DNA of 32,000 nucleotides from Candidatus Electrothrix yaqonensis (GTDB taxonomy: Bacteria; Desulfobacterota; Desulfobulbia; Desulfobulbales; Desulfobulbaceae): the NCBI GenBank assembly GCA_047651235.1, contig CP178758.1:1350001-1382000 (forward strand), given 5' to 3'. This document shows positions 2,146 to 31,301 of this stretch, one piece after another. Under the pieces are notes generated by a model that saw only the letters and a program-made list of their open reading frames with translations, searched no databases and was not told where the DNA came from. Every line of letters begins with the position of its first letter. Position 1 is the first letter of the stretch. Both the position numbers and the translations under genes were made by a program.

Positions 2146-4989
2146 TTGTTAGTGATAGAGAATATGCTGACCGACGAATACAAAGGAATGCGTTGGCTGA
2201 AGTGTGATTTGCACATGCATACAGCAGGAGATTCCAATCATTGGCATGGGGATTCAATAATTCTTGGACAAGAGGCTGATACTGCAAGAAAATTCGTAGC
2301 AGCCTGTTGTAAAACAGGACTTAATGTTGTCGCGATAACAGACCATAATTTTTTAAGCAAAGACTTTCTTCCGCATCTGCAAACGGCTTTTTCTGAACTT
2401 GAACGCCAAAAAAATCACAAGATCAGTCTGTTCCCAGGATTCGAGTTTGAAGCAGCAGGAGTTGGACGCGGCGTTCATGTACTCTCCTTGTTTAAACCGG
2501 ACTCTGATTTCTCACAGATTCAATCCATATTGACAGAATGCGGTATATCTTACCCAGGGTTGGACCAGAACGGAATCCTGTGTAAATCTGATCTCAACCT
2601 GAAAGAAATCTTACAAATTGTACAGGAGAAGCACAACGGGATTGTTATTCTTCCACACTCTCTGAGTGATGACGGTATATTTGACAATACATCGACAAGA
2701 GAATGGCTCCAGCAGGATCAGTTTACCAACCCTCATCTTTTAGCCGTTGAAGTCCCCAAACCTGTCTGCCAAATGAGCAAGGCATTCCAGAAACTGTTTC
2801 GTTCAGGTGATGACTGCCTCCAAGGTTGGAAAAGAATTCGACCTATTGCCACCTTGATGTCATCAGATAATAAAAAATTAACTGATCAAGGCGAAGACAA
2901 AAAACCGACTCCTAACAGCATTGGATTCCGATATTCTTGGATCAAGATGTCTGACCCTTCCATTGAGTCCCTCCGACAGGCTTTCCTCGACCACGAGTCA
3001 CGCATTTCTCTCCCGAAAGACGTTTCGACTGATATTCACCCAGCTGAACGGGAACGACACGCAGTTATCGAGTCTGTCTCTGTAAAAAATACAGCCTTCT
3101 TAGCTGACCAGGAAATCTACTTTTCTCCCAACATGAATTGTGTGATCGGAGGACGGGGGAGCGGCAAGTCAACGTTGCTTGAGTACCTTCGGATCATACT
3201 GAAAAAAGATCAAAATAAAAAAGTTGACGATAATACAAAAGAACGTATTGGGCGAATACAAAGTACTTTGAACGGGATCTCAGAACTAAAAGTCTGCTGG
3301 AAAAGTGCTGACGGACTCAAGGATTGTATCGTCTGGCGGCAGGGTGACGGCTCTATTGTTCAGGGTGAGGAACAGCCTGATCCAGGTACCTTTTTTCGTA
3401 ACCTCCCCGTTCACTTTTACAGTCAACAGCAACTTAGCCGCCTGACGGAGCCAAAAAAAGATGACGGCAGCGAACGTCTGCTGGAACTACTGGACGGATT
3501 TGCCAAAAACGAACTGAAAGAATTGTCCGAGCAGGAACGAATAGTTAAGCGTCAGATTCAGGAGAATTTCGCTAAACTCCGTCAAGCGAAAGCCCTTGAA
3601 GAAGACTATAAGCGTCTTCAGCAGGAAGAAAATGATCTGACCCGCCAATGGAAGGCACGCCAAGAAATTCAGGAGGATGCTCAAAGGCATCAGCAGCTTA
3701 AAGAAGAATATCATTACCTTGAGGGACTACTGGGTGTTCCGGGAAAACAATTTTCTGATGTTGCCATGCTGGCAGAAAGCATTGCCGATTCCCACCTGTC
3801 TTTTCCGACAGGCGACTTGCCTCATGCGGTATGGTTTCATCAGTTTGATAGTAAAGTGAAAAATGCTAAGGATAAAGTGGCAGAAACAATACGTGAGACC
3901 GTTGAACAGTTCAACCGAGATATCCAGGTATTCAAAGGAGATGACTCGAATTGGCCTGCTATCCAGAAAGAGCTGGAACAAGCAGATGAGCAATTCAGAA
4001 AAGCCTGTGACGATAAAGGTCTTACTCCCGATGATGTTGGTCGCCTTCAGGAAATCAATCAGTCGCGGGAGAAAAAGCAGCGAGATATCGAAAAGCTGAA
4101 GGGAGAAATCCAAGAGATCAAGACAGCATCTGACAACCCGGAAGAAGCAATGCAAAAACTTCATCAGTTATGGAAGGAACAGACAGTTAAACGGGAGAAG
4201 GCAGCAAGCCGAGCAAATAAGTTAGCTGTACTGAATGACAGCGATCGGCCATTTATAGAAGTAACGGTTCAATGTCAGCAAGATAAAAAAAGTTTCCAAG
4301 AACACTGGCAGCATTTTAGAGACGCCACTTCTGTTAAAGGCAATACACGTCTTGGAAAAAACTGGGAAGACTGCGGAAACGGCCTATTCAGCCTTTTCGT
4401 GAGCAAACAGGATGCCGAGTCGCCGTGGCAGTTACTGCATAATCTTCTCCCTGTGGAGCGGGAAGCAATTGAACTTGATTGTGGCAGAATCTCCCATGAG
4501 GAATTGTTTAATCACATTAAAGCGCATCCTGAAGAATGGGAACAACTTCGTTGTTCCAGAGTGCAGGACAGTGTGGACGTGAAGTTGTATCGGGCTGACG
4601 GTTCTCCTGCTGGAAGCATTGCCGAGGGATCGCTTTCCGATGGACAGAGAAATACAGCAGCACTCGCACTGCTGCTCGCTCAGGAAGGTGGTCCTCTTGT
4701 CATTGACCAGCCTGAAGACGAGCTGGACTCTAATTTTGTCTTCAACGAACTGATCCCGATGCTCCGCAAGGTCAAATCAAAACGTCAGATCATCATGGCA
4801 ACACATAATGCCAACCTGCCGGTCAACGGAGATGCGGAATTAGTATATGCTCTTGAAGCGCTTGGAAGCAAAGGAGAAGTGCGCACTCATGGCGGTCTTG
4901 ATCAACATGCTGTTACCCAAGCCGTTCTCGATATTATGGAGGGAACAGAAGAAGCCTTCCGGCGGAGGCGGGAGAAATATCACTTCTGA
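2146..4989 (+). CDS. PHP-domain phosphoesterase fused to a Rad50/SMC-type ABC ATPase (Ppl-like / PHP-AAA fusion)
   Basis: N-terminal PHP motifs: CDLHMHT, AITDHN, FPGFEFE, GVHVLSLF, ILPHS. Walker A GGRGSGKST at about nt 3148-3174. A heptad-rich K/E/Q coiled-coil region of about 300 aa follows. C-terminal ABC signature LSDGQRNTAALALLL, Walker B LVIDQPEDELD and H-loop IMATHNANL. No CxxC hook. Start is ambiguous (TTG 2146, GTG 2152 or ATG 2164). Confidence 0.85.
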   Translation: MLVIENMLTDEYKGMRWLKCDLHMHTAGDSNHWHGDSIILGQEADTARKFVAACCKTGLNVVAITDHNFLSKDFLPHLQTAFSELERQKNHKISLFPGFEFEAAGVGRGVHVLSLFKPDSDFSQIQSILTECGISYPGLDQNGILCKSDLNLKEILQIVQEKHNGIVILPHSLSDDGIFDNTSTREWLQQDQFTNPHLLAVEVPKPVCQMSKAFQKLFRSGDDCLQGWKRIRPIATLMSSDNKKLTDQGEDKKPTPNSIGFRYSWIKMSDPSIESLRQAFLDHESRISLPKDVSTDIHPAERERHAVIESVSVKNTAFLADQEIYFSPNMNCVIGGRGSGKSTLLEYLRIILKKDQNKKVDDNTKERIGRIQSTLNGISELKVCWKSADGLKDCIVWRQGDGSIVQGEEQPDPGTFFRNLPVHFYSQQQLSRLTEPKKDDGSERLLELLDGFAKNELKELSEQERIVKRQIQENFAKLRQAKALEEDYKRLQQEENDLTRQWKARQEIQEDAQRHQQLKEEYHYLEGLLGVPGKQFSDVAMLAESIADSHLSFPTGDLPHAVWFHQFDSKVKNAKDKVAETIRETVEQFNRDIQVFKGDDSNWPAIQKELEQADEQFRKACDDKGLTPDDVGRLQEINQSREKKQRDIEKLKGEIQEIKTASDNPEEAMQKLHQLWKEQTVKREKAASRANKLAVLNDSDRPFIEVTVQCQQDKKSFQEHWQHFRDATSVKGNTRLGKNWEDCGNGLFSLFVSKQDAESPWQLLHNLLPVEREAIELDCGRISHEELFNHIKAHPEEWEQLRCSRVQDSVDVKLYRADGSPAGSIAEGSLSDGQRNTAALALLLAQEGGPLVIDQPEDELDSNFVFNELIPMLRKVKSKRQIIMATHNANLPVNGDAELVYALEALGSKGEVRTHGGLDQHAVTQAVLDIMEGTEEAFRRRREKYHF

Positions 4990-5003: not shown

Positions 5004-6254
5004 ATGAATAAACCCCTCCGCATCCTCCACACCTCCGACTGGCACATAGGTCGCACCCTCTACGGACGCCCCAGCTACGACGAGTTCACCAAATTTTTTC
5101 ATTGGCTCTACGACACCATTGTCGAGCAGCAGGTGGACATCCTGCTGGTGGCAGGCGACGTCTTCCACACCACCACCCCCAGCAACCGGGCCCAGCAGCT
5201 CTACTACAACTTCCTCTGCCGGGTCGCAGCCTCGTCCTGCCGTCATCTGGTGGTGACTGCTGGCAATCACGACTCGCCCACCTTTCTCAGCGCCCCGCGA
5301 GAACTCCTGCGCGCCCTTAATATCCACGTCCTGGCCACCCTGCCCTCCTCGCCTGCCGAGGAGGTCCTTGTCCTCAAAGACCAGGCCGGACAAGCCGAGG
5401 CCATCATCTGCGCGGTGCCCTTTCTCCGCGACCGGGATATCCGCACAGCAGTCGCCGGACAGGACCAGGATGACCGGGAACAGGATCTGATCCAGGGCAT
5501 CAAACAGCATTATAGCGAGGTCTGCGCCGCAGCTGAGGAGCAGCGCAATACATTGCCCCGTCCTGTCCCCCTCATCGGCATGGGCCATCTCTTCACCGCT
5601 AACGGCAGCAAAGTGGAAGGCGACGGGGTACGTAATCTCTATGTGGGCTCCCTGGCCTCTGTGAGTGCGGACGCTTTCCCGGATAGCCTGGATTACCTGG
5701 CCCTAGGCCATCTCCATGCCCCGCAAAAGGTAGGGGGCAACGAAACCCGCCGCTACAGCGGAGCCCCTCTGGTAATGGGTTTTGGCGAGGCTGAAAAAAA
5801 GAAGAGCGTCTGTCTGCTTGATTTCCCGGCATCCGACCCGACCGCCCCAGCTGTGGAGCTTCTGCCAGTGCCGATATGTCAGCGAATTAAACAGATCAAG
5901 GGCGACTGGGAGCATATCCAGACCGAGCTCACCACCTTGAAGCTGGAAGGCCGGGCCATCTGGCTGGAGATTATTTACCAAGGCGAAGAGCTGATTGCTG
6001 ATCTGCGTCAGCGTCTTGATGCTGCTGTTGCCGGAACAGAACTGAAGATCCTCCGCGTCCGCAACCGCCGCATTATCGAGCAGGCCCTGCATCCGGTTCA
6101 GGCCGAGGAAACCTTGGCTGATCTGGGGCATGAACAGGTCTTTAACCGCTGCCTGGATGCCCATGAAATCCCGGCAGAACAGCGTCCTTCCCTGCTGGCC
6201 GCGTATCGGGAAATCACCCTTGGCCTGGAACAGGATGATCCGATGGCTACGTAG
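5004..6254 (+). CDS. sbcD: Exonuclease SbcCD, nuclease subunit D (Mre11-like)
   Basis: Calcineurin-like/Mre11 motifs are present (LHTSDWHIGR, AGDVFH, AGNHDS, GHLH). 416 aa, immediately upstream of sbcC. TAG stop at 6252-6254. Confidence 0.9.
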   Translation: MNKPLRILHTSDWHIGRTLYGRPSYDEFTKFFHWLYDTIVEQQVDILLVAGDVFHTTTPSNRAQQLYYNFLCRVAASSCRHLVVTAGNHDSPTFLSAPRELLRALNIHVLATLPSSPAEEVLVLKDQAGQAEAIICAVPFLRDRDIRTAVAGQDQDDREQDLIQGIKQHYSEVCAAAEEQRNTLPRPVPLIGMGHLFTANGSKVEGDGVRNLYVGSLASVSADAFPDSLDYLALGHLHAPQKVGGNETRRYSGAPLVMGFGEAEKKKSVCLLDFPASDPTAPAVELLPVPICQRIKQIKGDWEHIQTELTTLKLEGRAIWLEIIYQGEELIADLRQRLDAAVAGTELKILRVRNRRIIEQALHPVQAEETLADLGHEQVFNRCLDAHEIPAEQRPSLLAAYREITLGLEQDDPMAT

Positions 6255-6313: not shown

Positions 6314-9300
6314 ATGCGTATCCTCCGACTTCGTCTCCACAATCTCAATTCCCTGAGCGGCAAATGGGAGCTTGATTTTACTGATCCCTCTTTTGTCAGC
6401 AACGGCATCTTTGCCATCACCGGCCCCACCGGCTCGGGCAAGACCACTATTCTGGATGCGGTCTGTCTGGCCCTGTACGGGTCTACTCCCCGTCTAGGAA
6501 AAGTAACCGGCAGCAACAATGAAATTATGTCCCGCCGATGCGGTGAATGTTCCGCCGAGGTGGAGTTTGCCACGGTCAGGGGCCGATACCGCTGTTTCTG
6601 GTTTCAGCACAGGAGCCGAAAAAAAACCGACGGCAACCTGCAGCCGCCCAAACGGGAATTTTCCGAGGTGAAAACCGGAAAAATTCTGGCCTCGAAGAGC
6701 GATGAGGTGGCCCGGCTGGTGGAGGAATACACGGGCATGGATTTTGACCGCTTCACCCGATCCATGCTTCTTGCTCAGGGAGGTTTTGCAGCTTTTCTCC
6801 AAGCCGGACAGGATGATCGGGCACCGATCCTGGAACAGATCACGGGCAGCGGTGTTTACAGCGAAATCTCCAAGCGGGTGCATGTACGTTTCACAGCGGA
6901 AAAAGCAGCGCAGACCACGTTGGAGGAAAAGGTTGCAGCCATGCAGCTGCTTTCCTTGAGCCGGGAAAAGGAGCTGCAGCAGGACGTGGCTCGCTTGCAG
7001 ACTGCACAAGCCGAGTCGGAACGGACAATCAGGAACAATGAAGCTCTGCTTGTTCAGCTGGAGAAGATTGCCGAACTGCAACAGGATATTACGGTCATCA
7101 GCAAAGAACAGAGCAGTCTCTTGCAGGAAGAAAAAAATTTTGCCGAGGATGCCGAACGGCTGGCCTTGGCTGAACAGGCCCGTGTGCTGGAAGGAGAGTA
7201 TACAGAACTCCGCTTACTGCGCGACAGCCAGCAGAAAAATATAGCTGCCTTGGCAGCAGCACGGTTGAGCCTGCCCAAAAAAGAAACAGCGGTTAAGGAG
7301 GCGGAACAGCATCTCAACAGCAGCAAGGATGCCTTGGAAGAAAGCAGAGCTGCTCAGGAAAAAGGAACTGCCATTATCCGGGAGGTCCGGGAACTGGATC
7401 TCCGCATCAATGATACAACTGCTACCCTGGACCGGGACAGGAAAAAACAGACTGCACTGAAGGAGCAACAGCAGCAGGATCAGGAGCAATATACGCAGCT
7501 GGAACAACAGAAAAACAAGGCCGCTGCCCGCCTGCAAAAGATAAACCGCTATCTGAGCGAACACCGCATTGATGAACAGCTGAACACGGAACTTGCAGCC
7601 CTCTGCCTGCGTCTTGAACAGTTCGGCAGCTCGGCAGATACGCTGAAAAATCTCCACCTCAAGCGGGACAAAGCTGACAAGGAAAGGGGCAAGACTGAGC
7701 AGACTTGGCAAAAACAACAACAGGCATATCTGACCGCTGAAAAATTACTGAACGATATCGGGCAGCAGCGTGTCGCGATCCAAGATGAACAGACCGCCCT
7801 GCTGAATGGCCGCAGCATTGCGGAAATACGACGGGATTTGCGACTGTTGACGGATCAATGTGCTCTACTCAGGCAGCTACTGGAAAATGCCCGGAAGCAG
7901 GAAAAATTTGTACAGGATCTCAGAGGTTTTTTAAGCCAACAAGAAGAGCTTACTGCGGAACGCGACAAACAGGCTGATGAGTTTGCTCTTCTCCAGGAGG
8001 AGCAGAAGAGAACAAAGGAACAGGCAGAGGCCCTGCGCATCCAAGTTGCTCTTTGTGCCCGTATCCGCGACCTTGAAGAAGAACGCGCCCGTTTGCAGGC
8101 CGAGCATCCCTGCCCGCTCTGCGGCTCGCTTGAGCATCCCTATGCAGAGGAAGAAAATATCCCGATGTTGGATGCAGCGGAAGAAAAATTACAGGCAGCT
8201 CTGGCGGCAAAGGACGCGGCAGATAAAAAAATTTCTGATGCCCGGGTCAGACGTGCTCAACTTGAAGCAAAAGAACAGGAGATGAGCAGGCAACTTCGCG
8301 AAAAGGAAGATGCTGTGCAGGAGCTTGGAGAGCAGCAACATACATTATATAGAGAGCTTGCAGGCCAGACACCGGTTGAGCGAAATCCTGTCGCTATACA
8401 ACAGCACCTTGCAGCATTTCAAGATCGACTCGCGGAAACGCAGAAACAACTTGATGCCGCAGAGCAGGCAGAGCAGAAACTTGACAAGTTCAGTCATGCG
8501 CTGGATAAGCAAAAGGATGCTGTTTTTCAGGCGGACAGAAAACAGGAGGCTGCACGAAATGCTCGGGAAAAGGCCGAGCAGGAGCTGCAAAGATTGGAGC
8601 AGGAATCCAAGGAGGCGGAAGAGATGCTTGCCGCGAAACAGTGCATTGCCTTGGAAAAATTAGCGGTCTACAGTATTACCGGGCTGTCTGTCAATAATCC
8701 GGAAAAAATTATCACTGAGCTCACTGCACGGCGGGATCAATGGCTGGATAAAAAGAAAAAAAAGGAAGCTGCAGTACAGAAGATTGCCTCATTGGACACA
8801 GCAGGCCGAGAACTGCAGGTTGCTATGGACACAAGGCAGAGCCAGATGGAGGAAATGGAGGCCGCTCTTACCGACAAACGCAGAGAACAACAGAACTTGG
8901 TTGAACAACGTGTTCAGCTTTTTGCGGAAAAAGATCCGGATCTCATCGAAAAACAGCTTGCCCAGGCAGTCAAGCAGGCTGAGACAGATCTGCAGAAAAG
9001 CCGAAAAAAATACAATCAGTTGCTTACAGATCGTGCTTTGGCTAGGGCTGATCTCCGCACTCAAGAAGATGATGTCACAAAGGTCAGAAAAGAACGTGAA
9101 CAGGTTGAAGCACTTTTTATCCAGCGACTTCAGGAAAAAAGTTTTACCGATGAAAAAGCTTGGTGTGCAGCCCGTCTCGCTGAAGAACAACGCATTGCTC
9201 TGAAGAAGCAGGCTGATGCTCTGCGGGATCGGAAAATCCGGCTTGACACACATCTACACAGCAAGGAAACAGAGCTTGCCGCTGCACAAGAAGCCCTGTC

Positions 9301-9994
9301 CGCAGATGATATCCAACAGGAAAAGCTTCAGCAGGAACAGGATGCCCTGACCAATGAACAGAACCATATTCTTCAAGAGATCGGTTCTCTCCAGCATCAG
9401 CTTCAACAGAACAAAGAGCAACGGAATCAACAGCAGGAACTCCTGCATAGCTTGGAAGCGCAGAAAAGAGAATGCCTGCGCTGGAAAGAGCTGCACGACC
9501 TGATCGGATCGGCAGACGGCAAGAAATATCGTAACTTTGCCCAGGGACTCACCTTTGAGCTCATGGTTGCCCGTGCCAATGAGCAGCTGGCCCGGATGAC
9601 CGATCGCTACCTGCTGGTCCGGGATCAGGCCCAGCCCCTGGAACTCAACGTGATCGACTCCTGGCAGGCCGGAGAGATCCGCTCCACCAAGAACCTGTCC
9701 GGCGGCGAGAGCTTTGTGGTCAGTCTGGCCTTGGCCCTGGGGCTTTCCGAAATGGTGGGCGGCAATGTGCGGGTGGACTCCCTCTTTCTTGACGAGGGCT
9801 TTGGTGCCTTGGACGATGATGCCCTGGAAACCGCCTTGGAAACCCTGGCCGGGCTGCAGCGGGAGGGCAAACTGATCGGCGTGATTTCCCATGTCGCGGC
9901 CCTCAAGGAACGGATTGCCTGTCAGCTGGAGGTTATTCCGGGGACAGGCGGGCAGAGTGTTGTGCAGGGAGCCGGGGTGAGGAGGGTGGAATGA
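6314..9994 (+). CDS. sbcC: Exonuclease SbcCD, ATPase subunit C (Rad50-like)
   Basis: Walker A GPTGSGKTT. Very long Q/E/K coiled coil with a central CPLC zinc hook (about nt 8111-8122). C-terminal LSGGESFVVSLALAL signature, Walker B LFLDEGFGALD and ISHV. 1226 aa. Confidence 0.9.
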   Translation: MRILRLRLHNLNSLSGKWELDFTDPSFVSNGIFAITGPTGSGKTTILDAVCLALYGSTPRLGKVTGSNNEIMSRRCGECSAEVEFATVRGRYRCFWFQHRSRKKTDGNLQPPKREFSEVKTGKILASKSDEVARLVEEYTGMDFDRFTRSMLLAQGGFAAFLQAGQDDRAPILEQITGSGVYSEISKRVHVRFTAEKAAQTTLEEKVAAMQLLSLSREKELQQDVARLQTAQAESERTIRNNEALLVQLEKIAELQQDITVISKEQSSLLQEEKNFAEDAERLALAEQARVLEGEYTELRLLRDSQQKNIAALAAARLSLPKKETAVKEAEQHLNSSKDALEESRAAQEKGTAIIREVRELDLRINDTTATLDRDRKKQTALKEQQQQDQEQYTQLEQQKNKAAARLQKINRYLSEHRIDEQLNTELAALCLRLEQFGSSADTLKNLHLKRDKADKERGKTEQTWQKQQQAYLTAEKLLNDIGQQRVAIQDEQTALLNGRSIAEIRRDLRLLTDQCALLRQLLENARKQEKFVQDLRGFLSQQEELTAERDKQADEFALLQEEQKRTKEQAEALRIQVALCARIRDLEEERARLQAEHPCPLCGSLEHPYAEEENIPMLDAAEEKLQAALAAKDAADKKISDARVRRAQLEAKEQEMSRQLREKEDAVQELGEQQHTLYRELAGQTPVERNPVAIQQHLAAFQDRLAETQKQLDAAEQAEQKLDKFSHALDKQKDAVFQADRKQEAARNAREKAEQELQRLEQESKEAEEMLAAKQCIALEKLAVYSITGLSVNNPEKIITELTARRDQWLDKKKKKEAAVQKIASLDTAGRELQVAMDTRQSQMEEMEAALTDKRREQQNLVEQRVQLFAEKDPDLIEKQLAQAVKQAETDLQKSRKKYNQLLTDRALARADLRTQEDDVTKVRKEREQVEALFIQRLQEKSFTDEKAWCAARLAEEQRIALKKQADALRDRKIRLDTHLHSKETELAAAQEALSADDIQQEKLQQEQDALTNEQNHILQEIGSLQHQLQQNKEQRNQQQELLHSLEAQKRECLRWKELHDLIGSADGKKYRNFAQGLTFELMVARANEQLARMTDRYLLVRDQAQPLELNVIDSWQAGEIRSTKNLSGGESFVVSLALALGLSEMVGGNVRVDSLFLDEGFGALDDDALETALETLAGLQREGKLIGVISHVAALKERIACQLEVIPGTGGQSVVQGAGVRRVE

Positions 9995-10272
9995 GTTCGG
10001 CTTATGGCACAGAGTAACGGAATAAATATTTTTCCTAACAAAACAAGGAGACTGGTTTACGTTTTCGACCCAATATGGTTCGAATAGTCCTGTTTAAAAT
10101 AAACATTTAATTTAGTTCTATTTTTTTCAAAAAAAAACACTTCGCAGCTGAGGTTACGCAGCCGAAACGCAAAATCGGCAGATTCTACGTTCTGGGTGTC
10201 TCGTAACTTACTGATTTTTTATTTACGTGCGTAACATCAGTGGGTAGGTACGAGGGATGTGAAATATGGGCT

Positions 10273-10920
10273 TTATCCGATGGAGACTGAGTTGAAACCG
10301 GGCAGTTTGACCGCTTTATAATTATATACCTTTATCTGATAATACAAAGACTTGTAAATGGATTTTCTGATCAGATCCGCCGGGGAAAGTTCGCTTATGT
10401 TCTCGCTCACAGGAAGGATTCCTGCATGCTTAAATGCTGCACCAACCAATTCCGAGCAAAATAATTCTGAGGCATCCTCTTTGTTTCTGGTTATGGAACA
10501 AAATTTGTCCAGCAGATCAAATCCGGCCTTCTTTATATCCTCATAATCATATCCCTTGCCGACCTGCTCCAGAATGAAATCATACAGTTTCGGTTCATCT
10601 ATTTTACTTCTGACGTTATCAGACAGCCGTGCAATCCAGATATCTCCTTTGTAAAAGGGAATGGAATTTGAAAAATTATTGATTATTACCCCTTCTCTTT
10701 CTGGGTACATATCTCCCTATGATGCTTCCACAAAATTAATTCTGTCATCTTTTCTGATAATCAGAGCAATATGTGAAGCAGGAAAGCGGGTAACAAGACG
10801 AATTAATTTTGAAAGCCTGTATTGGCCTCCAAAAATCACTACATCTCCGGTCTGCAGTTCGTTCCGTATATTCTGGTAATTGATGGCAAGCGGAAATTTT
10901 TTTTCCTGATCCCGTATCAT
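10273..10920 (-). pseudogene. Permuted papain-like amidase (YiiX/YaeF, peptidase C92 family) with one in-frame TAG
   Basis: Track ORFs 10717..10920 and 10273..10710 are in the same frame, separated only by TAG (plus-strand cta at 10717-10719). The joined product carries LQTGDVVIF...SHIALI...FVEAS*GD...GKGYDY...FCSELV, matching the E. coli YiiX pattern (QTGDIIF, SHTGML, FEA, YDF, YCSELV). Confidence 0.65.
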
Positions 10921-11062
10921 GTTTTCTCCTCTGAATTCATATAATAAGTGTTTATTCTCTCGTGATTTTCACAGGTGCCTGATACAAAAACATCTTTGAG
11001 CAAAGGAGAACTCAGGTGTATTCTGAAGAAAATAGGTACCAAGATATTTCCGGAGGTTACAA

Positions 11063-14751: not shown

Positions 14752-15807
14752 ATGAAATACCTTTTCCCCTTGGTTGCGGTCATCGCTTTGGCGTTGATTG
14801 CGTGGATAGGGTCTATGGTCCCCGGCCTGCAATTCCTGTTCGGTGTTGTTGTGCCCTATGCGGCCCTGATTTTATTTGTCGGCGGCTTCTGCTGGCGGGT
14901 TCTGTACTGGGCCAAATCGCCGGTGCCGTTCAGAATCCCCACCACCTGCGGCCAGGGGTACTCCATATCCCTACCCGGAGTGAAGCAGAACAAGCTGGAG
15001 GCCCCGGTAAACACAAAGGAAGTGCTTGGCCGGATGTTTTTGGAGATTGTCTTTTTCCGCTCCCTCTGGCGCAACACCAGAGCCAGCATCAAGCCCGGTC
15101 CGGTGTTGAACTACAAATCAAGCAAATGGCTCTGGCTCTTCGGCATTCTCTTTCATTACAGCATGTTGCTGATCCTGCTCCGGCACCTGCGTCTTTTTCT
15201 GGAGCCGGTACCATTCCTGATCAGCGGGCTGGATGCACTGGACGGCATAGCTCTTCAGCCCACCCCGGAACTTTCGCTCTATGTTACTGACGCACTGATC
15301 CTTCTCGGCCTGCTGGCCCTGTTGTTCCGGCGCTTTCTCCTCCGTCCGGTGCGCTATATTTCCTTGGCCAACGACTACTTCCCGCTCTTTCTCCTGATCG
15401 GTATTGCAGGCACCGGCATTCTGATGCGCTACTTCCTGCGCAGCGGTGTGGATATCATCGCCATCAAGCAGCTCGCGGTCGGCCTGACCACCTTTAAGCC
15501 GGTTGTCCCCGCTCACATCGGCTCGATTTTCTACATACATCTGTTTCTGGTTTCCTGTCTGCTGGCCTATTTCCCCTTTTCCAAACTGATGCATATGGGC
15601 GGGGTTTTTCTCAGCCCGACCAGAAATCTGGCCAATGACAGCAGGATGAGACGTCATATCAATCCCTGGAACCCGGAGATCAAACCGCATTCCTATGCGG
15701 CCTATGAGGATGAATTCCGCGAGGATATGGTGGAACAGGGAATCCCGGTTGAAAAGGAACTGCCTGAGAAGGCTGATGAGACGACGACTAACTTAGATAA
15801 GGATTGA
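14752..15807 (+). CDS. dsrM: DsrM-like integral-membrane heme-b subunit (NarI/HdrE-like)
   Basis: 351 aa with multiple hydrophobic helices and conserved His in the helices. Strong SD (GAAGGAG). It sits directly upstream of, and 3 nt from, the DsrK-like gene. Confidence 0.7.
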   Translation: MKYLFPLVAVIALALIAWIGSMVPGLQFLFGVVVPYAALILFVGGFCWRVLYWAKSPVPFRIPTTCGQGYSISLPGVKQNKLEAPVNTKEVLGRMFLEIVFFRSLWRNTRASIKPGPVLNYKSSKWLWLFGILFHYSMLLILLRHLRLFLEPVPFLISGLDALDGIALQPTPELSLYVTDALILLGLLALLFRRFLLRPVRYISLANDYFPLFLLIGIAGTGILMRYFLRSGVDIIAIKQLAVGLTTFKPVVPAHIGSIFYIHLFLVSCLLAYFPFSKLMHMGGVFLSPTRNLANDSRMRRHINPWNPEIKPHSYAAYEDEFREDMVEQGIPVEKELPEKADETTTNLDKD

Positions 15808-15810
15808 ACA

Positions 15811-17442
15811 ATGGCAGTCATAACAAAAGATGAGTTGTCAAAGAATGTGGCCGAAGAGCGTTCGATGATGACCGGTTCTGCTCCGGAAAAGGGGTGGATG
15901 GATACGCCGGTACAGTTCAAGCCGGGAAACTACGCTTATCCGACTAAAGCGGAAAAGCTCGAATACCTGGACAGTCAGCAGGGGGTCAGTTTTCCTAATG
16001 CCCGCGTCTGGAATCCTGAAGACGATAACTGGAAGCTGCCGGATAACTGGCGGGAAATCATCATTAAAGGGCTGGCGGATCGTCTTGACCGGTTCCGCTC
16101 GCTGAAGATTTTTATGGACTGCTGCGTGCGCTGTGGCGCCTGCGCAGACAAATGCCATTTTTTCCTCGGCACCGGCGATCCCAAAAATATGCCGGTCCTG
16201 CGGGCCGAGCTCCTCCGCTCGGTGTACCGCAAGGAATTCACCCTGGCCGGTAAGCTGCTCGGCAAAATGGCAGGCGGTCGCGACATGACCGCCGGGGTCC
16301 TGAAAGAGTGGTTTATGTACGCCTACCAGTGCACGGAGTGTCGCCGCTGTTCTGTTTTCTGCCCGTACGGTATTGACACTGCCGAGATTACCATGATGCT
16401 GCGCGAGCTGCTGCACATGGTCGGCTGCGGCATCAACTGGGCTATGGAGCCGGTTTCCAACTCCAACCGTACCGGCAACCACATGGGCCTGACTCCCCAG
16501 GCGTTTAAAGGCAATGTCGATTTTCTCTGCGAAGATGTTGAGAATCTGACCGGGGTCAAGGTGAATCCGACCTTTAACCGCAAGGGCGCCGAGGTTCTGT
16601 TCATCACCCCCTCTGCAGACGTGTTCGCCGAGCCGGGCCTGTTCACCTGCATGGGCTATCTGCTCCTGTTTGAGGCCATCGGGCTGGATTATACCTGGTC
16701 CACCTATGCCTCCGAAGGCGGCAATTTCGGTCTGTTCACCTCCAACGAGATGATGAAAAAACTCAACGCCAAGATGTACGCTGAAGCCGAGCGTCTGGGC
16801 GTGAAGTGGATTCTCGGCGGCGAGTGCGGCCATATGTGGCGGGTGATCCATCAGTACATGGATACCATGAACGGCCCGGCTGATTTTTTGGAAGTTCCCA
16901 AATCACCGGTCACCGGAACGGTCTTTGAAAATGCGGCTTCCACCAAAATGGTGCATATCAGCGAGTTCACCGCTGACCTGATCAAGCACGGCAAAATCAA
17001 ATTTGACAAGAGCCGTAACGCTCACGTCAAGGCCACCTTCCATGATTCCTGTAATCCTGCCCGGGCTATGGGAATGCTTGAGGAACCGCGCTACATCCTT
17101 GACCATGTGCTGGAAGAATGGCATGAAATGCCTGCAAACACCATCCGAGAAAAGACCTTCTGCTGCGGTTCCGGTACAGCTCTGAACACGGACGAAATCA
17201 TGGAGCTGCGGATGCGGTCCGGTCTGCCCCGTGCCAACGCGGTCAAGCATGTTTACGACAAACACGGCATCAACACCTTGGCCTGTGTCTGCGCCATTGA
17301 CCGGGCCACCCTGAGCACGCTGATGGACTACTGGGTGCCGGAAGTGACCGTTGCCGGTGTGAGCGAGCTGGTCGGCAATGCGCTGGTCATTGAAGGTGAA
17401 AACAGACAGGAACTTGACGAGGGTCTGCGGACTCTGGTATAA
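15811..17442 (+). CDS. dsrK: DsrK-like cytoplasmic Fe-S subunit (HdrD family, CCG domain)
   Basis: Two ferredoxin-type clusters (CVRCGACADKC, CTECRRCSVFC) and a C-terminal CCG-domain signature (FHDSCNP...FCCGSG). At 543 aa the size fits DsrK. Confidence 0.75.
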   Translation: MAVITKDELSKNVAEERSMMTGSAPEKGWMDTPVQFKPGNYAYPTKAEKLEYLDSQQGVSFPNARVWNPEDDNWKLPDNWREIIIKGLADRLDRFRSLKIFMDCCVRCGACADKCHFFLGTGDPKNMPVLRAELLRSVYRKEFTLAGKLLGKMAGGRDMTAGVLKEWFMYAYQCTECRRCSVFCPYGIDTAEITMMLRELLHMVGCGINWAMEPVSNSNRTGNHMGLTPQAFKGNVDFLCEDVENLTGVKVNPTFNRKGAEVLFITPSADVFAEPGLFTCMGYLLLFEAIGLDYTWSTYASEGGNFGLFTSNEMMKKLNAKMYAEAERLGVKWILGGECGHMWRVIHQYMDTMNGPADFLEVPKSPVTGTVFENAASTKMVHISEFTADLIKHGKIKFDKSRNAHVKATFHDSCNPARAMGMLEEPRYILDHVLEEWHEMPANTIREKTFCCGSGTALNTDEIMELRMRSGLPRANAVKHVYDKHGINTLACVCAIDRATLSTLMDYWVPEVTVAGVSELVGNALVIEGENRQELDEGLRTLV

Positions 17443-27044: not shown

Positions 27045-28820
27045 TTACCGTTCCGGTTTACTTGCTGCCTTCTTCCAAGCCAATTCTTCCAGCTGGGCCT
27101 TTATTTTGTCACGGAAATAATCGATCCGCTCGTTGTCCAAGGCGATGAGCAGCCAGTGTTCCGCCTGCTCATAGTCGCCTTTGCGCGTCAGCAGGCGACC
27201 GAAGCTTGAGGCAACCATTGCCACACCCCGGCGGTCTCCGCTTTTGCTTAGAAATTCATAACTTTTTCGATACAGACCCTCAGCTTCCGGCCAGCGTTTC
27301 CTGTCTCTGCTGAGCAGATTTCCGAAGCTGTGCCATACCTGCGCCTGATGATGTGGATTGTCCTGGCCCAGCTCCAGGCTTTTTCTGTAGGCAGTTTCTG
27401 CTTCCTGATGCCGCTGACGGTTGCGGCTCAACAGATTACCGAGACTGTGCCATACCTGCGCCTGACCGAAGGTATTGCCGTTTCGTTCTTCCAGCTCCAG
27501 GCTTTTTCTGTAGGCAGTTTCTGCTTCCTGATGCCGCTGACGGTTGCGGCTCAACAGATTACCGAGACTGTGCCATACCTGCGCCTGACCGAAGGTATTG
27601 CCGTTTCGTTCTTCCAGCTCCAGGCTTTTTCTGTAGGCAGTTTCTGCTTCCTGATGCCGCTGACGGTTGCGGCTCAACAGATTACCGAGACTGTGCCATA
27701 CCTGCGCCTGATGATGTGGATTGTCCTGGCCCAGCTCCAGGCTTTTTCTGTAGGCAGTTTCTGCTTCCTGATGCCGCTGACGGTTGCGGCTCAACAGATT
27801 ACCGAGACTGTGCCATACCTGCGCCTGATGATGTGGATTGTCCTGGCCCAGCTCCAGGCTTTTTCTGTAGGCAGTTTCTGCTTCCTGATGCCGCTGACGG
27901 TTGCGGCTCAACAGATTACCGAGACTGTGCCATACCTGCGCCTGACCGAAGGTATTGCCGTTTCGTTCTTCCAGCTCCAGGCTTTTTCTGTAGGCAGTTT
28001 CTGCTTCCTGATGCCGCTGACGGTTGCGGCTCAACAGATTACCGAGACTGTGCCATACCTGCGCCTGATGATGTGGATTGTCCTGGCCCAGCTCCAGGCT
28101 TTCCCGAAAAGCCGTTTCCGCGTCCTTATGCCGCCGGAATTGACGGCTCCAACTCAGCCCAATAATGTGCGCAGCCACTGCCGCATCATGGCGACTTTGT
28201 GGCGAGCCGCTGCGCTGCTTCCACACCGGGTCCAAGAAACGAAGCGCGACCTTATGCTGCTTATTTTTATGCGCATACATTCCCCGCATAAAATACGCGC
28301 TTTGGAGATGATCGGGCAGTGTTCCCGCCGGAATTTCTGCGGACAAGCTTTCGTCAATGTAAAGATCAACCACCCGCGAAGTTTCATCGTGGTGCAGGTC
28401 AAAAAACTGACGCAGTACAGCCACCCCGCCCGGCTGCTCCTGCTCCATAGTCAGCGAGAGGCGGGCAAGCTGGAGATCGAATTCGTCGTGCAGATTATCC
28501 TGAGAAGATTGCCTTTTGACCTCGCGCAGGGCATTCAGCACCCGACAACGGGTGCTTTCCGCTGAACCGTTGAGTTTGGAGAGGACATATTCCCGGACAT
28601 CATCATCAATGCCCCAGCTTGTCCGGCCCTTTTCATGCCAGATCGGAAATGAACGGATTTCCTCCAACAGCTCCGGGGTGTTGCCGTTGGCAAGCTCGGA
28701 CTGAACCAGAATGCCTGCGGCCAGTTCATCATCCAAATAGGAAGGCACGGCGAGGAAAGACAATGATTTTTCCGCATCCGGCGAAAGCACGTCAAGGATA
28801 TCCTGCACCGAGCTGGTCAT
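27045..28820 (-). CDS. Winged-helix-like N-terminal region + KLC-type (about 40-aa) TPR array protein, 591 aa
   Basis: The N-terminal ~220 aa (LSPDAEKSLSFLAVPSYLDDELAAGIL...WGIDDDVREYVLSKL) read like the WH/helical module that follows the NTPase in STAND proteins. At least 9 TPR-like units follow, six of them identical. The ATG overlaps the upstream stop (ATGA). Confidence 0.85.
   Translation of the reverse strand: MTSSVQDILDVLSPDAEKSLSFLAVPSYLDDELAAGILVQSELANGNTPELLEEIRSFPIWHEKGRTSWGIDDDVREYVLSKLNGSAESTRCRVLNALREVKRQSSQDNLHDEFDLQLARLSLTMEQEQPGGVAVLRQFFDLHHDETSRVVDLYIDESLSAEIPAGTLPDHLQSAYFMRGMYAHKNKQHKVALRFLDPVWKQRSGSPQSRHDAAVAAHIIGLSWSRQFRRHKDAETAFRESLELGQDNPHHQAQVWHSLGNLLSRNRQRHQEAETAYRKSLELEERNGNTFGQAQVWHSLGNLLSRNRQRHQEAETAYRKSLELGQDNPHHQAQVWHSLGNLLSRNRQRHQEAETAYRKSLELGQDNPHHQAQVWHSLGNLLSRNRQRHQEAETAYRKSLELEERNGNTFGQAQVWHSLGNLLSRNRQRHQEAETAYRKSLELEERNGNTFGQAQVWHSLGNLLSRNRQRHQEAETAYRKSLELGQDNPHHQAQVWHSFGNLLSRDRKRWPEAEGLYRKSYEFLSKSGDRRGVAMVASSFGRLLTRKGDYEQAEHWLLIALDNERIDYFRDKIKAQLEELAWKKAASKPER
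27330..28102. repeat. Nucleotide-perfect tandem array inside the TPR gene: 117-bp (A) and 123-bp (B) modules in order A-B-B-A-A-B plus a 53-nt partial copy
   Basis: The marker GTGCCATACCTGCGCCTG recurs at 27330, 27447, 27570, 27693, 27810, 27927 and 28050 (spacings 117, 123, 123, 117, 117, 123). The A module encodes ...LELGQDNPHH and the B module ...LELEERNGNTFG. The shared 96 nt are identical in every copy I compared. Confidence 0.95.
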
Positions 28821-29641
28821 GATGCCGCAACCGCCTGCCTTTTCAGCCGAGCGGCGTATTTGTGTTTGAAATCCTTGTAACTGATCTTGCCGTGCGGCGG
28901 TTCAGCCAAACCGGAGCAAAACGCCTCGTCACCGGTTTCCTGCACAATGTCATCAAAGCGCAGATACGGACTGATGGTCTCAACATGCTCGGTGTCAAAA
29001 TCCAGCAGCTCATCCAGCTCGCCCTGATTGACAATGCAGATTTTCACATGTCCTTTACGCGCAAGATTTCTGTACAGCCTACGGAGCCATTGTCTTGTAT
29101 CATCACTGAAGTCTTGAAAGCCTGCTTTGAGGAACTGAAAAGAAAGCAGTATCTGCTGCGTACCCAGGGATTGCTGAAAATCAAGCAGAAACAGATCAAA
29201 GAGCTTTTCAATGTTCTCCTCGCGCAGCTTGTTCAACGAAGGCAGCTCGTTGATGACAAGATTCACATTTTGATTTTGACTGATTTCTTCCGCGCTAAAT
29301 TCATCTCCGGCCTGCGCATGGTTTCCCACACCCTGCTGCATCGCTGCCGGAAAATAACCGGTCATCCCTCGGTTGAATTCCTGATAAAATAAGGGAAAGT
29401 TCTCGCTGCCGTCCAGCTCTTCGGCCAGTTCTTTTAAAAAGATGTCTTTGACAATTCGAGCATCGGAAGAATGCTGCATGGCGACAAAACGGAGAGGGGT
29501 AGCTTCTGTTTTCATCCAGATGCGGGCATCGCGTATTTCCTGCGTGTCCGGGATATGCAGGAGCAGAAACGGATCATCGCTGTTCTTCCAGTCGGCGAAG
29601 TGCGCCTTCACGTCCTTTCTGTCGTGCCACTTGACAATCAT
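28817..29641 (-). CDS. Hypothetical 274-aa protein; reads like a STAND/AAA_16-type NTPase core lacking Walker A and B
   Basis: Clean ORF with SD AGGAAA; both its start and its stop overlap neighbouring genes as ATGA. There is no GxxxxGK[ST] anywhere. DPFLLLHIPDTQEI sits where a P-loop strand would be. QQILLSFQFLKAGFQDFSDDTRQWLRRLYRNLARKGHVKICIVNQGE resembles the AAA_16 'vlvlDDlhwaD..s..lL..l.....pvlllgt.R' block with DD replaced by QF. Confidence 0.6.
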   Translation of the reverse strand: MIVKWHDRKDVKAHFADWKNSDDPFLLLHIPDTQEIRDARIWMKTEATPLRFVAMQHSSDARIVKDIFLKELAEELDGSENFPLFYQEFNRGMTGYFPAAMQQGVGNHAQAGDEFSAEEISQNQNVNLVINELPSLNKLREENIEKLFDLFLLDFQQSLGTQQILLSFQFLKAGFQDFSDDTRQWLRRLYRNLARKGHVKICIVNQGELDELLDFDTEHVETISPYLRFDDIVQETGDEAFCSGLAEPPHGKISYKDFKHKYAARLKRQAVAAS

Positions 29642-29994
29642 TTGATTTCCTGCCGGATGTTCTTGAACGACATTTTCTTTCCCGCTTTGGCATTCCTGCC
29701 GACAGACTGTTCACCTGCACCTCTCTGTTCAGGACGGATTTGAGTTATGCTTTCAACTTCCATCTCGTCCGGCGTTTCCGCACCATCTCCGATGCTTTGC
29801 AGGTCACCGGACGGCTCTTCCTGTTTTTTACCTTTCTTTGTAAATATTTTCAAGGCGATTGACAAAAGGACAACTGCAGCCAGACTTGCTGCGCTGATAA
29901 ACCACCCCTTCCGCCAGCCGTATTTATCAATCACGCCCATACAGGCTGCGGAAAAACTCAGAGCAGCTCCAATGAAAGTCAGCAGGTTTTCCAT
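29638..29994 (-). CDS. Small membrane protein (118 aa): two N-terminal TM helices + charged, probably disordered tail
   Basis: SD GAGGA lies 6 nt upstream of the ATG, which is 11 nt downstream of the hemA stop. Hydrophobic segments LLTFIGAALSFSAACMGVI and WFISAASLAAVVLLSIALKIF are followed by a K/E/D/G-rich tail. Confidence 0.6.
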   Translation of the reverse strand: MENLLTFIGAALSFSAACMGVIDKYGWRKGWFISAASLAAVVLLSIALKIFTKKGKKQEEPSGDLQSIGDGAETPDEMEVESITQIRPEQRGAGEQSVGRNAKAGKKMSFKNIRQEIK

Positions 29995-30005
29995 AATTAT
30001 CCTCG

Positions 30006-31301
30006 TCAGTTTTTTTTCTGCGTGCTGCGTTCATTGAGCTGAAATAACGTGCGGACGTGCATGATCCGCTCCTCCTGATCCACACAGCAGCGGTCCGACT
30101 TCAGATACTGCAGCGGGTGATGGAGCATTTTGCCGACAATGGATGAGGCCATCCGTTCAATGCATTTTCTGTCCTTGGCGCTGATGCCGTTGAGCCGGGG
30201 CAGAGTCTTGGCCAGCTCTGCCTGACAGATGGATTCCGCCGCAGCTCTGAGTTCGAGAATGGTCGGGGTGACTTCCATCGAGGCCAGCCAGCCGACAAAC
30301 TTCAGGGTTTCCTCCTCCACGATCCGGCGGGCCTTGACCGCCTCCTTGTCCCGCTGCTCCCTGTTCATCTCCACAACATTGTTCAGGTCGTCAATGTCGT
30401 AAAGATAGATATTTTCCAGGGTGTTGATTTTCGGGTCCAGATCGCGGGGCACCGCAATATCGATCAGAAAGAGCGGCCGGTTGCGGCGGCGGCGCATCAC
30501 CGGGACGATATCTTTTTTCCGCAGGATAAACCCTTCGGCCCCGGTGGAGCTGATCAGAATATCCACCTCAAGCAGCTGGTCAGTCAGCTCATCAAGTCCG
30601 ACGGACCTGCCCCGAAAGCGGGCTGCCAGCTTCATGGCGCGCTCTAGGGTGCGGTTGGCGACCACCACCTCCTGAATCCCCTGGCTTACCAGATGTTCGG
30701 CTGCAAGTTCAGCCATTTCTCCGGCTCCCACCAGCATGACCCGTTTTCCCTCCAGCTTGCCGAAGATCTTGCGCCCCAGTTCAACCGCAGCATAGGAGAT
30801 GGAGACTGCGTTGGCGCCGATTCGGGTTTCCGTGCGCACCCGTTTGGCCACGGAAAACGATTTATGGAGCAGTTTGTTGAGGATCAGGCCGGATGTTTTT
30901 TTGCGCGATGCATGACGGAACGCCTCTTTCAGCTGCCCGAGAATCTGCGCCTCGCCGACGATCATTGAATCCAGGCTGGAGGACACCATAAAGAGGTGAT
31001 GGACAGCCTCTTTGTTTTCATAGAGGTAGATACTGTTTTTCAGTTCCTCTTCGCTCACCCTGCCGTGAAAAAGCAGGGCAAGGACTTCACGCCGCATCTG
31101 TTCCGGTTCTTGGCAGGTGAACAGAATTTCCACCCGGTTGCAGGTGGAAAGCAGATAGTACTCCCCAAGTCCTCCTAACTGCCCGAGTCTGTCCAGGGGT
31201 TCCTCGTAGCCTCCGGTGAGCGCGAGTTTCTCCCGTACTTCCAGAGGGGTTTTTTTGTGATTCACACCGAGGAGAACAATGGAATCATGCCCCATAGTCA
31301 A
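30006..31301 (-). CDS. hemA: Glutamyl-tRNA reductase
   Basis: VLLGVNHKKTPLEVREK, LSTCNRVE, GEAQILGQLK and a VGAGEMAEL Rossmann motif. 431 aa. Confidence 0.95.
   Translation of the reverse strand: MTMGHDSIVLLGVNHKKTPLEVREKLALTGGYEEPLDRLGQLGGLGEYYLLSTCNRVEILFTCQEPEQMRREVLALLFHGRVSEEELKNSIYLYENKEAVHHLFMVSSSLDSMIVGEAQILGQLKEAFRHASRKKTSGLILNKLLHKSFSVAKRVRTETRIGANAVSISYAAVELGRKIFGKLEGKRVMLVGAGEMAELAAEHLVSQGIQEVVVANRTLERAMKLAARFRGRSVGLDELTDQLLEVDILISSTGAEGFILRKKDIVPVMRRRRNRPLFLIDIAVPRDLDPKINTLENIYLYDIDDLNNVVEMNREQRDKEAVKARRIVEEETLKFVGWLASMEVTPTILELRAAAESICQAELAKTLPRLNGISAKDRKCIERMASSIVGKMLHHPLQYLKSDRCCVDQEERIMHVRTLFQLNERSTQKKN

Follow-up and report, generated by a model that had tools for sequence, protein, structure and literature searches.

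We analysed a stretch of 32,000 nucleotides from Candidatus (Ca.) Electrothrix yaqonensis (Desulfobulbaceae; GenBank assembly GCA_047651235.1, contig CP178758.1, positions 1,350,001 to 1,382,000 of the forward strand), here called the window, and in it a cassette of three overlapping minus-strand genes that follows hemA. Gene 1 encodes a small putative membrane effector, gene 2 a protein with an AAA+/STAND-like fold without Walker motifs, and gene 3 a putative sensor with an array of tetratricopeptide repeats (TPRs). Gene 1 and gene 2 share a motif of 20 residues, present twice with opposite charges in the tail of gene 1 and once in a disordered loop of gene 2. We consider it somewhat probable that the cassette is an accessory conflict module of the abortive-infection or programmed-cell-death type, in which gene 2 and gene 3 form a bipartite, nucleotide-independent NLR-like receptor that is coupled to the membrane effector gene 1 by a beta-arch motif. 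The best reading of the signalling is a variant of amyloid-type receptor-to-effector signalling, because the genes are overlapping and collinear, the shared motif has about 20 residues, effector and receptor carry it in a 2:1 ratio of copies, alternative effectors exist, the TPRs are near-identical and the host is filamentous. An earlier interpretation, made from the DNA letters and their translations (hereafter the sequence-only reading), had missed this G/Q/N-rich motif, which gives the cassette a concrete mechanism. Coordinates of all features are given in Table 1.

A charge-complementary motif shared by gene 1 and gene 2

The motif follows the consensus Q-x-[VIM]-G-x-x-[AIV]-x-[AS]-x-x-x-h-x-[FVI]-x-x-[IN]-x-Q and is rich in G (12.3%), Q (11.3%), I (8.5%), V (7.1%) and N (6.9%) and poor in L (1.7%) and P (0.5%). 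BLASTP of gene 1 against gene 2 of the window aligned residues 92-115 of gene 1 with residues 99-122 of gene 2 (10/24 identities, E 0.006), and a hidden Markov model (HMM) of the full gene 2 family also retrieved the open reading frames (ORFs) upstream of gene 2. Furthermore, an HMM of 28 columns, built from the gene 2 loops alone, was searched against 1,174 ORFs of at least 40 amino acids (aa) from the window and 28 related loci (cited below by L numbers). Its only matches were gene 2 proteins and, for each of them, the adjoining upstream ORF; in gene 1 of the window the HMM found both copies (E 1.3e-8), which we call r1 and r2.

The two copies of gene 1 are complementary in charge. When r1 and r2 are placed in register, 30 pairs of residues have opposite charges and 1 pair has the same charge, as compared with 5-14 opposite pairs in shifted registers. 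The gene 2 copy shows 18 opposite and 3 like pairs against r2, but 1 opposite and 15 like pairs against r1. The charge pattern was repeated on a set of 11 loci, and the effectors with a single copy (L010, L017 and L019) carry a basic copy opposite an acidic receptor copy.

The copies of the two partners also co-vary. The sum of identities between partners of the same locus was 86, compared with 65.5±6.1 for shuffled pairings (permutation over 11 loci, P≈0.002). In L025, both partners have lost the flanking Q and gained [TW]-F-G-x-V-[ND]-I; in L020 and L023, both read ...V-x-[LIV]-x-G-N-x-Q; and in L026, both motifs are one residue shorter (19 residues).

Gene 2 has an NTPase-like fold without Walker motifs

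The AlphaFold2 model of gene 2, made from an alignment of 45 sequences, has a beta-alpha-beta core (predicted local distance difference test, pLDDT, 89.8; predicted template-modelling score, pTM, 0.82). Its leading Foldseek matches in the PDB are all AAA+ proteins, namely Cdc6 (1fnn_A, E 9e-4), Cdc6/Orc1 (2qby_A), ORC, RFC and HslU; the figures are modest (E ~1e-3, template-modelling scores 0.39-0.43, probabilities up to 1.00), and no STAND structure was found among the top 50. Cdc6/Orc is the AAA+ group nearest to STAND. All matches agree on the fold, and the confident model shows a Cdc6/Orc-like P-loop fold of the AAA+/STAND type. Sequence profiles give no ground for placing gene 2 in STAND proper: it has no match at E≤1 in Pfam, NCBIfam or PADLOC, including the NB-ARC, NACHT, AAA_16 and iSTAND models, and the profile of the family has no match at E≤10 among PDB sequences. 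Similarity to the double-stranded-DNA mimic DUF440/HI1450 (E 0.005-0.014) was far below the family cut-offs and was judged to be due to chance.

The nucleotide-binding motifs are absent from the whole family. Among its 45 aligned members, there is no conserved Walker A (GxxGxGK[ST]), no conserved Walker B (hhhhD[DE]) and no conserved acid after beta3, and the position of the P-loop reads h-x-D-x-x-E-x-x-D. Invariant residues are M1, W5, D7, K12 and Y255. The alignment opens with W-x-D-R-x-x-x-K...W-L, followed by a beta-strand, which we take to mirror the 'FVGRExEL...hhhhhG' entry of AAA_16/STAND domains, and the protein ends in a short helical region. The sequence-only reading had called gene 2 a Walker-less NTPase-like protein, and both the fold and the missing motifs bear this out. 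The disordered insertion, within which the motif copy sits, is the sole low-confidence stretch of the model (pLDDT 57-66).

Gene 3 combines a winged-helix-like module with a TPR array

Gene 3 was read earlier as a winged helix followed by TPRs. For its N-terminus, we modelled 260 residues from an alignment with four homologues (five sequences), and a winged-helix-like nature is supported at the level of predicted secondary structure, by helices and a beta-hairpin ahead of the TPRs. Conservation within the family is highest in this hairpin, at the segment SFPIW...W-x-DDDVR. It is plausible that gene 2 and gene 3 represent a STAND protein split at the HD1/WHD boundary. The sequence-only reading had likewise suggested a split STAND protein. 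The AAA+/STAND-like fold and the lost nucleotide motifs of gene 2 agree with this suggestion; with the N-terminus of gene 3, Foldseek retrieved TPR proteins only (MamA, NASP and Rap) and no STAND WHD or HD2.

The only profile matches of gene 3 are TPR models, at residues ~250-560. At the DNA level, the array is a tandem repeat with a period of 123, 6.6 copies and a 91% match; three 123-nt units are mutually 100% identical, and so are two 117-nt units. Between loci, the length of gene 3 orthologues varies from 354 to 591 aa and the number of TPR units from ~2 to ~8. Of the rapid diversification that had been proposed for the repeats, only variation in copy number and identical units were seen. 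Opposite the array, the plus strand (27330-28565) has two long antisense ORFs, one of 411 and one of 270 aa; they are artefacts of the repeat and not genes, because identical units propagate an open frame.

One type of orthologue departs from this architecture. On a metagenomic, cable-bacterium-like contig, the gene 3 orthologue of L001 (6931-8445; also in L002 and L003) has 1-2 TPR units, and a fragment of ~110 aa similar to AMP-binding_C, the C-terminal domain of acyl/acetyl-CoA synthetases, takes up the place of nearly all other units. The arrangement suggests either the capture of a domain or the decay of a sensor. AMP-binding_C was rejected as a property of the gene 3 family, the insertion being peculiar to the L001-type orthologue.

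Gene 1 is a small putative membrane effector

The two hydrophobic segments of gene 1 agree with the small protein with two transmembrane helices that the sequence-only reading had described. Gene 1 starts with M-E, an acidic second residue ahead of helix 1, and several orthologues have E or D at this position. It may be a constitutive two-pass membrane protein, or it may carry a masked helix like the Bell and HeLo proteins. The N-termini of Bell and HeLo proteins show the same combination of an acidic position 2 and a hydrophobic helix, which is a resemblance only: Bell and HeLo domains are five-helix bundles of ~90-140 aa, whereas the N-terminal module of gene 1 has just ~50 aa and two helices and is far too short for such a bundle, and gene 1 has no match to HeLo, Helo_like or SesA of Pfam. 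Neither gene 1 nor gene 2 has a match in Pfam, NCBIfam, PADLOC or PHROGs, in line with the earlier statement that none of the three proteins belongs to a nameable family; gene 3 adds just its TPR models.

An alternative N-terminus is found in L021 (23-259), L023 (1733-2008) and L025 (1647-1880). In it, the conserved segment W-[IV]-x-E-N-x-x-W-[LV]-F-x-G is followed by one hydrophobic helix, after which comes RKKR. These N-termini differ from the two-helix hairpin of the window, which suggests that the membrane module of the effector varies and the tail motif is kept.

The triad is rare, conserved and mobile

The gene 2 family is small. A word-indexed search of 5.8 billion protein clusters gave only three relatives, and an exhaustive HMMER search of 1.84 billion representatives gave 54 clusters, 32 of them at E<1e-10; nearly all members have 265-297 aa. 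With the N-terminal profile of gene 3, 6 metagenome loci were found, and a separate homology search, which was swamped by TPR words, gave 3 proteins. Co-occurrence of the three genes beyond this genome, on which the sequence-only reading had made its proposal depend, was seen throughout: in every retrieved locus, a small ORF lies upstream of a gene 2 homologue, which a homologue of gene 3, with its conserved N-terminal module and TPRs, abuts or overlaps, except at contig ends and in one case of effector swap (L026). Judged from sequence, the three ORFs are real genes and not chance ORFs, because the three-gene layout is conserved in >12 independent loci, down to ~20% identity.

The position of the cassette changes between genomes. 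A scan of a genome collection with a shallow alignment found only two genomes, both of cable bacteria, which hold its nearest relatives: Ca. Electrothrix gigas (87% identity) and Ca. Electronema halotolerans. The site between cca-rlmE and yebC is occupied by the cassette in the first of these and also on a related metagenomic contig. In Ca. Electronema halotolerans, the cassette is at a different site and is inactivated; gene 2 is split by IS66 at about residue 125, directly past the motif. The insertion in this gene (L012, 6469-7977, minus strand) encodes a transposase of the IS66 family (DDE_Tnp_IS66, zf-IS66). Neighbours of distant members are a DDE transposase, a ParE toxin-antitoxin pair, UPF0175/DUF3368 and HerA/NurA, and one distant member is flanked by a catalase gene on one side and the reverse transcriptase of a group II intron on the other. 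Since the location differs in each genome, the triad is an accessory, mobile cassette and not an appendage of hemA, and it is not related to haem. A link to haem biosynthesis was rejected on synteny and is largely refuted.

The effector can also be exchanged. L026 has, in place of the small membrane protein, an upstream protein of 345 aa that matches PRTase over its full length (PADLOC PRTase_III-A, E 1.8e-46; Pfam PRTase-CE, E 1.9e-46) and ends in an acidic and then a basic copy of the motif. The sequence-only reading had noted a resemblance to conflict systems, and the variable location, the insertion of an IS element and the swap to a retron-type PRTase strengthen it.

Two further genes were seen next to the triad. 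At the rlmE-yebC site, a protein of ~200-210 aa is encoded directly upstream (L001, 5061-5693; L011, 2606-3211), of which the L001 copy matches a CRISPR-associated PD-DExK nuclease of PADLOC (E 3e-53). It is probably a neighbour and not a fourth component, because neither the window nor other loci contain it. In an 82%-identical relative (L005, 2-214), whose contig is short, the gene upstream of the triad ends like an FGE-sulfatase (formylglycine-generating-enzyme-like) protein, with WCGDWY...RVLRGGSW. FGE-sulfatase is listed among the invader-sensing modules of bacterial conflict systems (PMC8195603).

Proposed mechanism and alternatives

How the cassette may signal can be outlined as follows. 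At rest, the gene 2 motif would form a flexible loop, with gene 1 unstructured in its tail. We infer that binding of a ligand to the TPR array would make the complex of gene 2 and gene 3 oligomerise, and that this would cluster the acidic, r1-like loop motifs. The loop presumably occupies the position of the pore-facing insertion in initiator-clade AAA+ proteins, so a ring-like assembly would gather the loops. In-register stacking of the gathered motifs on r2, the basic copy of gene 1, and likewise of r1 on r2, with templating of further copies, would yield a HET-s-like, charge-alternating beta-solenoid or another amyloid-type assembly. The assembly would draw the helices of gene 1 into a bundle and damage the membrane, and at the L026 locus it would act on the PRTase and activate it. 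Self-nucleation of the individual components would be prevented by the alternation of charges.

Several points weigh against amyloid-type signalling in a conflict module. The cassette lies among the housekeeping genes hemA, pgi and glyQ and apparently has no promoter of its own. PADLOC, to which the sequence-only reading had pointed as a check, recognises no cassette protein of the window as a defence component beyond the generic TPR of gene 3; its PRTase_III-A match concerns the alternative effector of L026. The exact-partner test of co-variation gave P=0.09 with 8 loci and reached significance after three divergent loci were added, and the motif windows were anchored by hand and several loci are closely related, so that the counts are not fully independent. 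The motif contains 7.8% K and is more charged than typical BASS motifs, and its strict charge alternation could equally fit a finite 1:1 heterodimeric beta-stack in place of an open-ended amyloid. In the monomer as modelled by AlphaFold2, the loop of gene 2 has no beta structure. To our knowledge, the amyloid signalling motifs described so far are all terminal, whereas the gene 2 copy is internal (residues 103-122 of 274). Finally, the best AlphaFold2 model of the gene 3 N-terminus has a pLDDT of 82.7, and the other four are of low confidence (62-72).

A more far-reaching form of the amyloid reading can be put forward tentatively. The cassette would then represent an unrecognised amyloid-type immune class, in which the motif sits in the loop of a dead AAA+/STAND ring-forming domain and the ring nucleates a charge-alternating hetero-beta-solenoid. 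The motif would be portable to a two-helix effector or to a PRTase, and the whole would act as a death switch of cable bacteria, possibly tied to their 'ghost cells'. We regard this as possible but doubtful.

The finite stack leads to another explanation, which we judge unlikely: the motif would be a stable docking element, a charge-paired beta-stack of two or three layers that constitutively tethers gene 2 and gene 3 to gene 1 without templating or polymerisation, in a defence sensor or in a membrane-associated scaffold with a different role. In-register complementarity between an acidic gene 2 copy and a basic r2 points to hetero-pairing and speaks against homo-stacks formed by the receptor motif, the single-copy effectors are basic and face an acidic receptor motif, and a receptor that has no NTPase activity has lost the classical NLR switch. 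However, duplication of complementary r1 and r2 within one effector is a trait of open-ended solenoids of the HET-s type, and the prediction for the loop of gene 2 is disorder, not a pre-formed structure. The motif is also found on a soluble PRTase toxin, for which tethering to a membrane makes little sense and activation by clustering does.

A third explanation places the contact in gene 3. TPR domains often bind short extended peptides, and the motif could be a linear peptide ligand for the TPR grooves, with both the tail of gene 1 and the loop of gene 2 serving as pseudo-substrates or autoinhibitors that do not touch each other. The N-terminal region of gene 3 resembles the peptide-binding proteins Rap and MamA, and the many near-identical units of the array could take up repeated motifs. 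A common binding groove is disfavoured because it implies a shared charge pattern, whereas r1 and r2 are opposite in charge (30 vs 1 pairs). Moreover, the TPRs vary in number and sequence while the format of the motif stays constant, and the partner motifs co-vary with each other. We consider a TPR ligand improbable.

The least credible explanation, to which we give almost no weight, is a housekeeping extension of the hemA operon serving tetrapyrrole or cytochrome biogenesis or the envelope structures of cable bacteria: the tight junction with hemA (11 nt, no terminator), ccsB upstream of hemA and the closest relatives in cable bacteria speak for it, but in Ca. Electrothrix gigas the cassette is found at the rlmE-yebC site, in Ca. 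Electronema it is elsewhere and disrupted by IS66, distant members adjoin catalase, ParE toxin-antitoxin pairs or transposases, only ~54 clusters exist among 1.84 billion representatives, and one member has a retron-type PRTase toxin as effector. The sequence-only reading had set this hemA-linked alternative as the outcome that would refute it if the triad were universally found downstream of hemA; synteny shows that it is not.

Comparison with known systems

The closest parallel to amyloid-type signalling by the cassette is Bab/Agp (BASS11) of E. coli, an amyloid-signalling abortive-infection system shown experimentally (Ibarlosa et al., bioRxiv 10.1101/2024.11.07.622273). Bab is an effector of 109 aa that is activated by the TPR protein Agp via a motif of 20 residues, without an NLR NTPase (bioRxiv 10.1101/2024.11.07.622273). 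The two systems have in common an accessory locus, a small effector of ~110 aa with an N-terminal hydrophobic helix and a C-terminal motif of ~20 residues, an adjoining TPR sensor with the same motif and a receptor without an active NLR NTPase. In contrast to Bab/Agp, the receptor of the cassette consists of two proteins, its motif is in an internal loop and not at the N-terminus, and there is no GreA/B-C or PIN domain. The effector of the cassette has two hydrophobic helices and no detected Bell-type bundle, its motif is duplicated with opposite charges, and the motif family appears to be different.

Pairs of Bell-domain proteins and NLRs with the motifs BASS1-10 have been described in multicellular bacteria, and HET-S/NWD2 (HRAM) in fungi (Dyrka et al. 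2020, bioRxiv 10.1101/2020.01.06.895854). As in these systems, the genes of the cassette are collinear and overlapping and share a G/N/Q-rich motif, of 20 aa in the cassette and ~20-25 aa in the others. Two pseudorepeats in the effector and one copy in the receptor are also found in HET-S/NWD2 and in BASS1/6. The cassette motif is rich in G, Q, N, V and I and poor in L and P like BASS motifs, except that K is not depleted. Further features shared with Bell/NLR pairs are a TPR sensor with highly similar repeats, alternative effector domains on the same motif and filamentous multicellular hosts. However, the receptors of Bell/NLR pairs are bona fide NB-ARC or NACHT proteins with an N-terminal motif, their effectors are five-helix bundles of the Bell or HeLo type, and Desulfobacterota are not among the phyla reported for them. 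The published BASS screens required Bell C-termini and NB-ARC/NACHT N-termini (bioRxiv 10.1101/2020.01.06.895854). The cassette would be invisible to such a screen because it has no Bell domain, no NB-ARC or NACHT match in Pfam and an internal motif.

Inactive STAND modules are known as iSTAND and iSTAND2 from the MoxR-vWA ternary conflict systems (Kaur et al. 2020; 2021, PMC8195603). They resemble gene 2 in that a STAND-like P-loop domain with eroded NTP-binding motifs forms the sensing or assembly part of a three-gene conflict system in multicellular bacteria, and in that the effector is coupled via a shared adaptor element, the 'EAD principle'. Unlike these systems, the cassette has no MoxR or vWA partner, and its adaptor is a 20-residue beta-motif and not a globular EAD or Death-like domain. 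In STAND NTPases, NBD-HD1-WHD(-HD2) and the repeat sensor are on one polypeptide, whereas the corresponding parts of the cassette are spread over two ORFs. The L026 effector matches the PRTase family of type III-A retrons over its full length, but the L026 locus has no reverse transcriptase or non-coding RNA, and its PRTase carries the r1/r2 pair and lies upstream of gene 2 and gene 3; the window has a membrane effector instead of a PRTase. In summary, the unusual features of the cassette are a receptor with an inactive NTPase fold, the distribution of this receptor over two genes, the internal position of the receptor motif and a minimal membrane effector. No such systems are reported in cable bacteria in the literature that was searched.

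Implications

If the amyloid-type reading is true, this kind of signalling extends past Bell/NLR and Bab/Agp to Desulfobacterota and cable bacteria, with a new motif family. It would also reveal a new receptor design, an inactive NTPase with the motif in an internal loop and split over two genes, and screens for terminal motifs beside annotated NB-ARC/NACHT and Bell domains would systematically miss such systems. A design rule would emerge as well, in which charge alternation (an acidic receptor copy and r1, a basic r2) blocks self-nucleation and permits hetero-templating. The cassette would be a first candidate for a regulated cell-death module in cable bacteria, where the death of a single cell in a conductive, centimetre-long filament would be consequential. 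Inactive 'ghost cells' of unexplained origin are described in cable bacteria (PMC12163305).

Genomic context of the cassette

Table 1. Coordinates of the three genes and their features; positions refer to the window
Feature	Position	Strand	Description
Gene 1	29638-29994	minus	118 aa; putative effector; two N-terminal hydrophobic helices, KKGKK stretch, tail with two motifs
Gene 2	28817-29641	minus	274 aa; AAA+/STAND-like alpha/beta domain without Walker motifs; predicted inactive NTPase-like module
Gene 3	27045-28820	minus	591 aa; putative sensor/scaffold
Spacer, hemA stop to gene 1 start	29995-30005	minus	11 nt, GAGGA ribosome-binding site
Gene 1, hydrophobic helix 1	29929-29985	minus	aa 4-22, LLTFIGAALSFSAACMGVI
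Gene 1, hydrophobic helix 2	29845-29907	minus	aa 30-50
Gene 1, motif copy r1	29740-29799	minus	aa 66-85, QSIGDGAETPDEMEVESITQ, net charge -6
Gene 1, motif copy r2	29650-29709	minus	aa 96-115, QSVGRNAKAGKKMSFKNIRQ, net charge +6
Gene 2, strand beta1 and degenerate P-loop position	29531-29569	minus	aa 25-37, FLLLHIPDTQEIR
Gene 2, disordered insertion	29237-29374	minus	aa 90-135, between strand beta2 and the helix preceding beta3
Gene 2, motif copy	29276-29335	minus	aa 103-122, QGVGNHAQAGDEFSAEEISQ, net charge -4, r1-like charge pattern
Gene 3, winged-helix-like module	28605-28820	minus	aa 1-72, four helices and a beta-hairpin (aa 61-71)
Gene 3, helical TPR-like linker	28122-28604	minus	aa 73-233
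Gene 3, TPR array	27150-28121	minus	eight units of 39-45 aa

The genes are chained by 4-nt ATGA start/stop overlaps at 29641-29638 (gene 1/gene 2) and 28820-28817 (gene 2/gene 3). The stop codon TGA of hemA (30006-30008) is followed by the spacer CGAGGATAATT, which contains GAGGA as a Shine-Dalgarno sequence, and then by the ATG of gene 1. These coordinates, overlaps and the 11-nt distance were all given correctly by the sequence-only reading. The identity of hemA was established by matches to GlutR_N, Shikimate_DH and GlutR_dimer, and ccsB lies upstream of it. In a scan for promoters and terminators, with counts at the level of shuffled sequence, no terminator-like site was found at the junction between hemA and gene 1. 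The GC content is 0.49 in genes 1 and 2 and 0.56-0.57 in the flanking hemA and pgi. Neither Rfam nor a tRNA scan gave a match in the window, which leaves no associated non-coding RNA or tRNA integration site.

Other features of the window

Apart from the cassette, an ORF of 947 aa (2146-4989, plus strand) matches 'Ppl' of PADLOC over its full length (E 2e-59, residues 14-944). It has AAA_23, AAA_21 and AAA_15 domains, lies in a stretch of low GC content (0.43-0.48) and is directly upstream of sbcD/sbcC-like genes (5004-6254 and 6314-9994). This Ppl-like ORF is a second defence gene of the window and is unrelated to the cassette. The GC content dips sharply to 0.385 at 10001-11000, around an ORF of 145 aa (10273-10710, minus strand) without a Pfam match, and this region could be a further acquired element. 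At 14752-17442 (plus strand), two neighbouring ORFs resemble DsrM/DsrK or Hme and encode a Nitrate_red_gam-like membrane cytochrome b and a 4Fe-4S dicluster protein, which is consistent with a sulfur-metabolising host of the Desulfobulbaceae.

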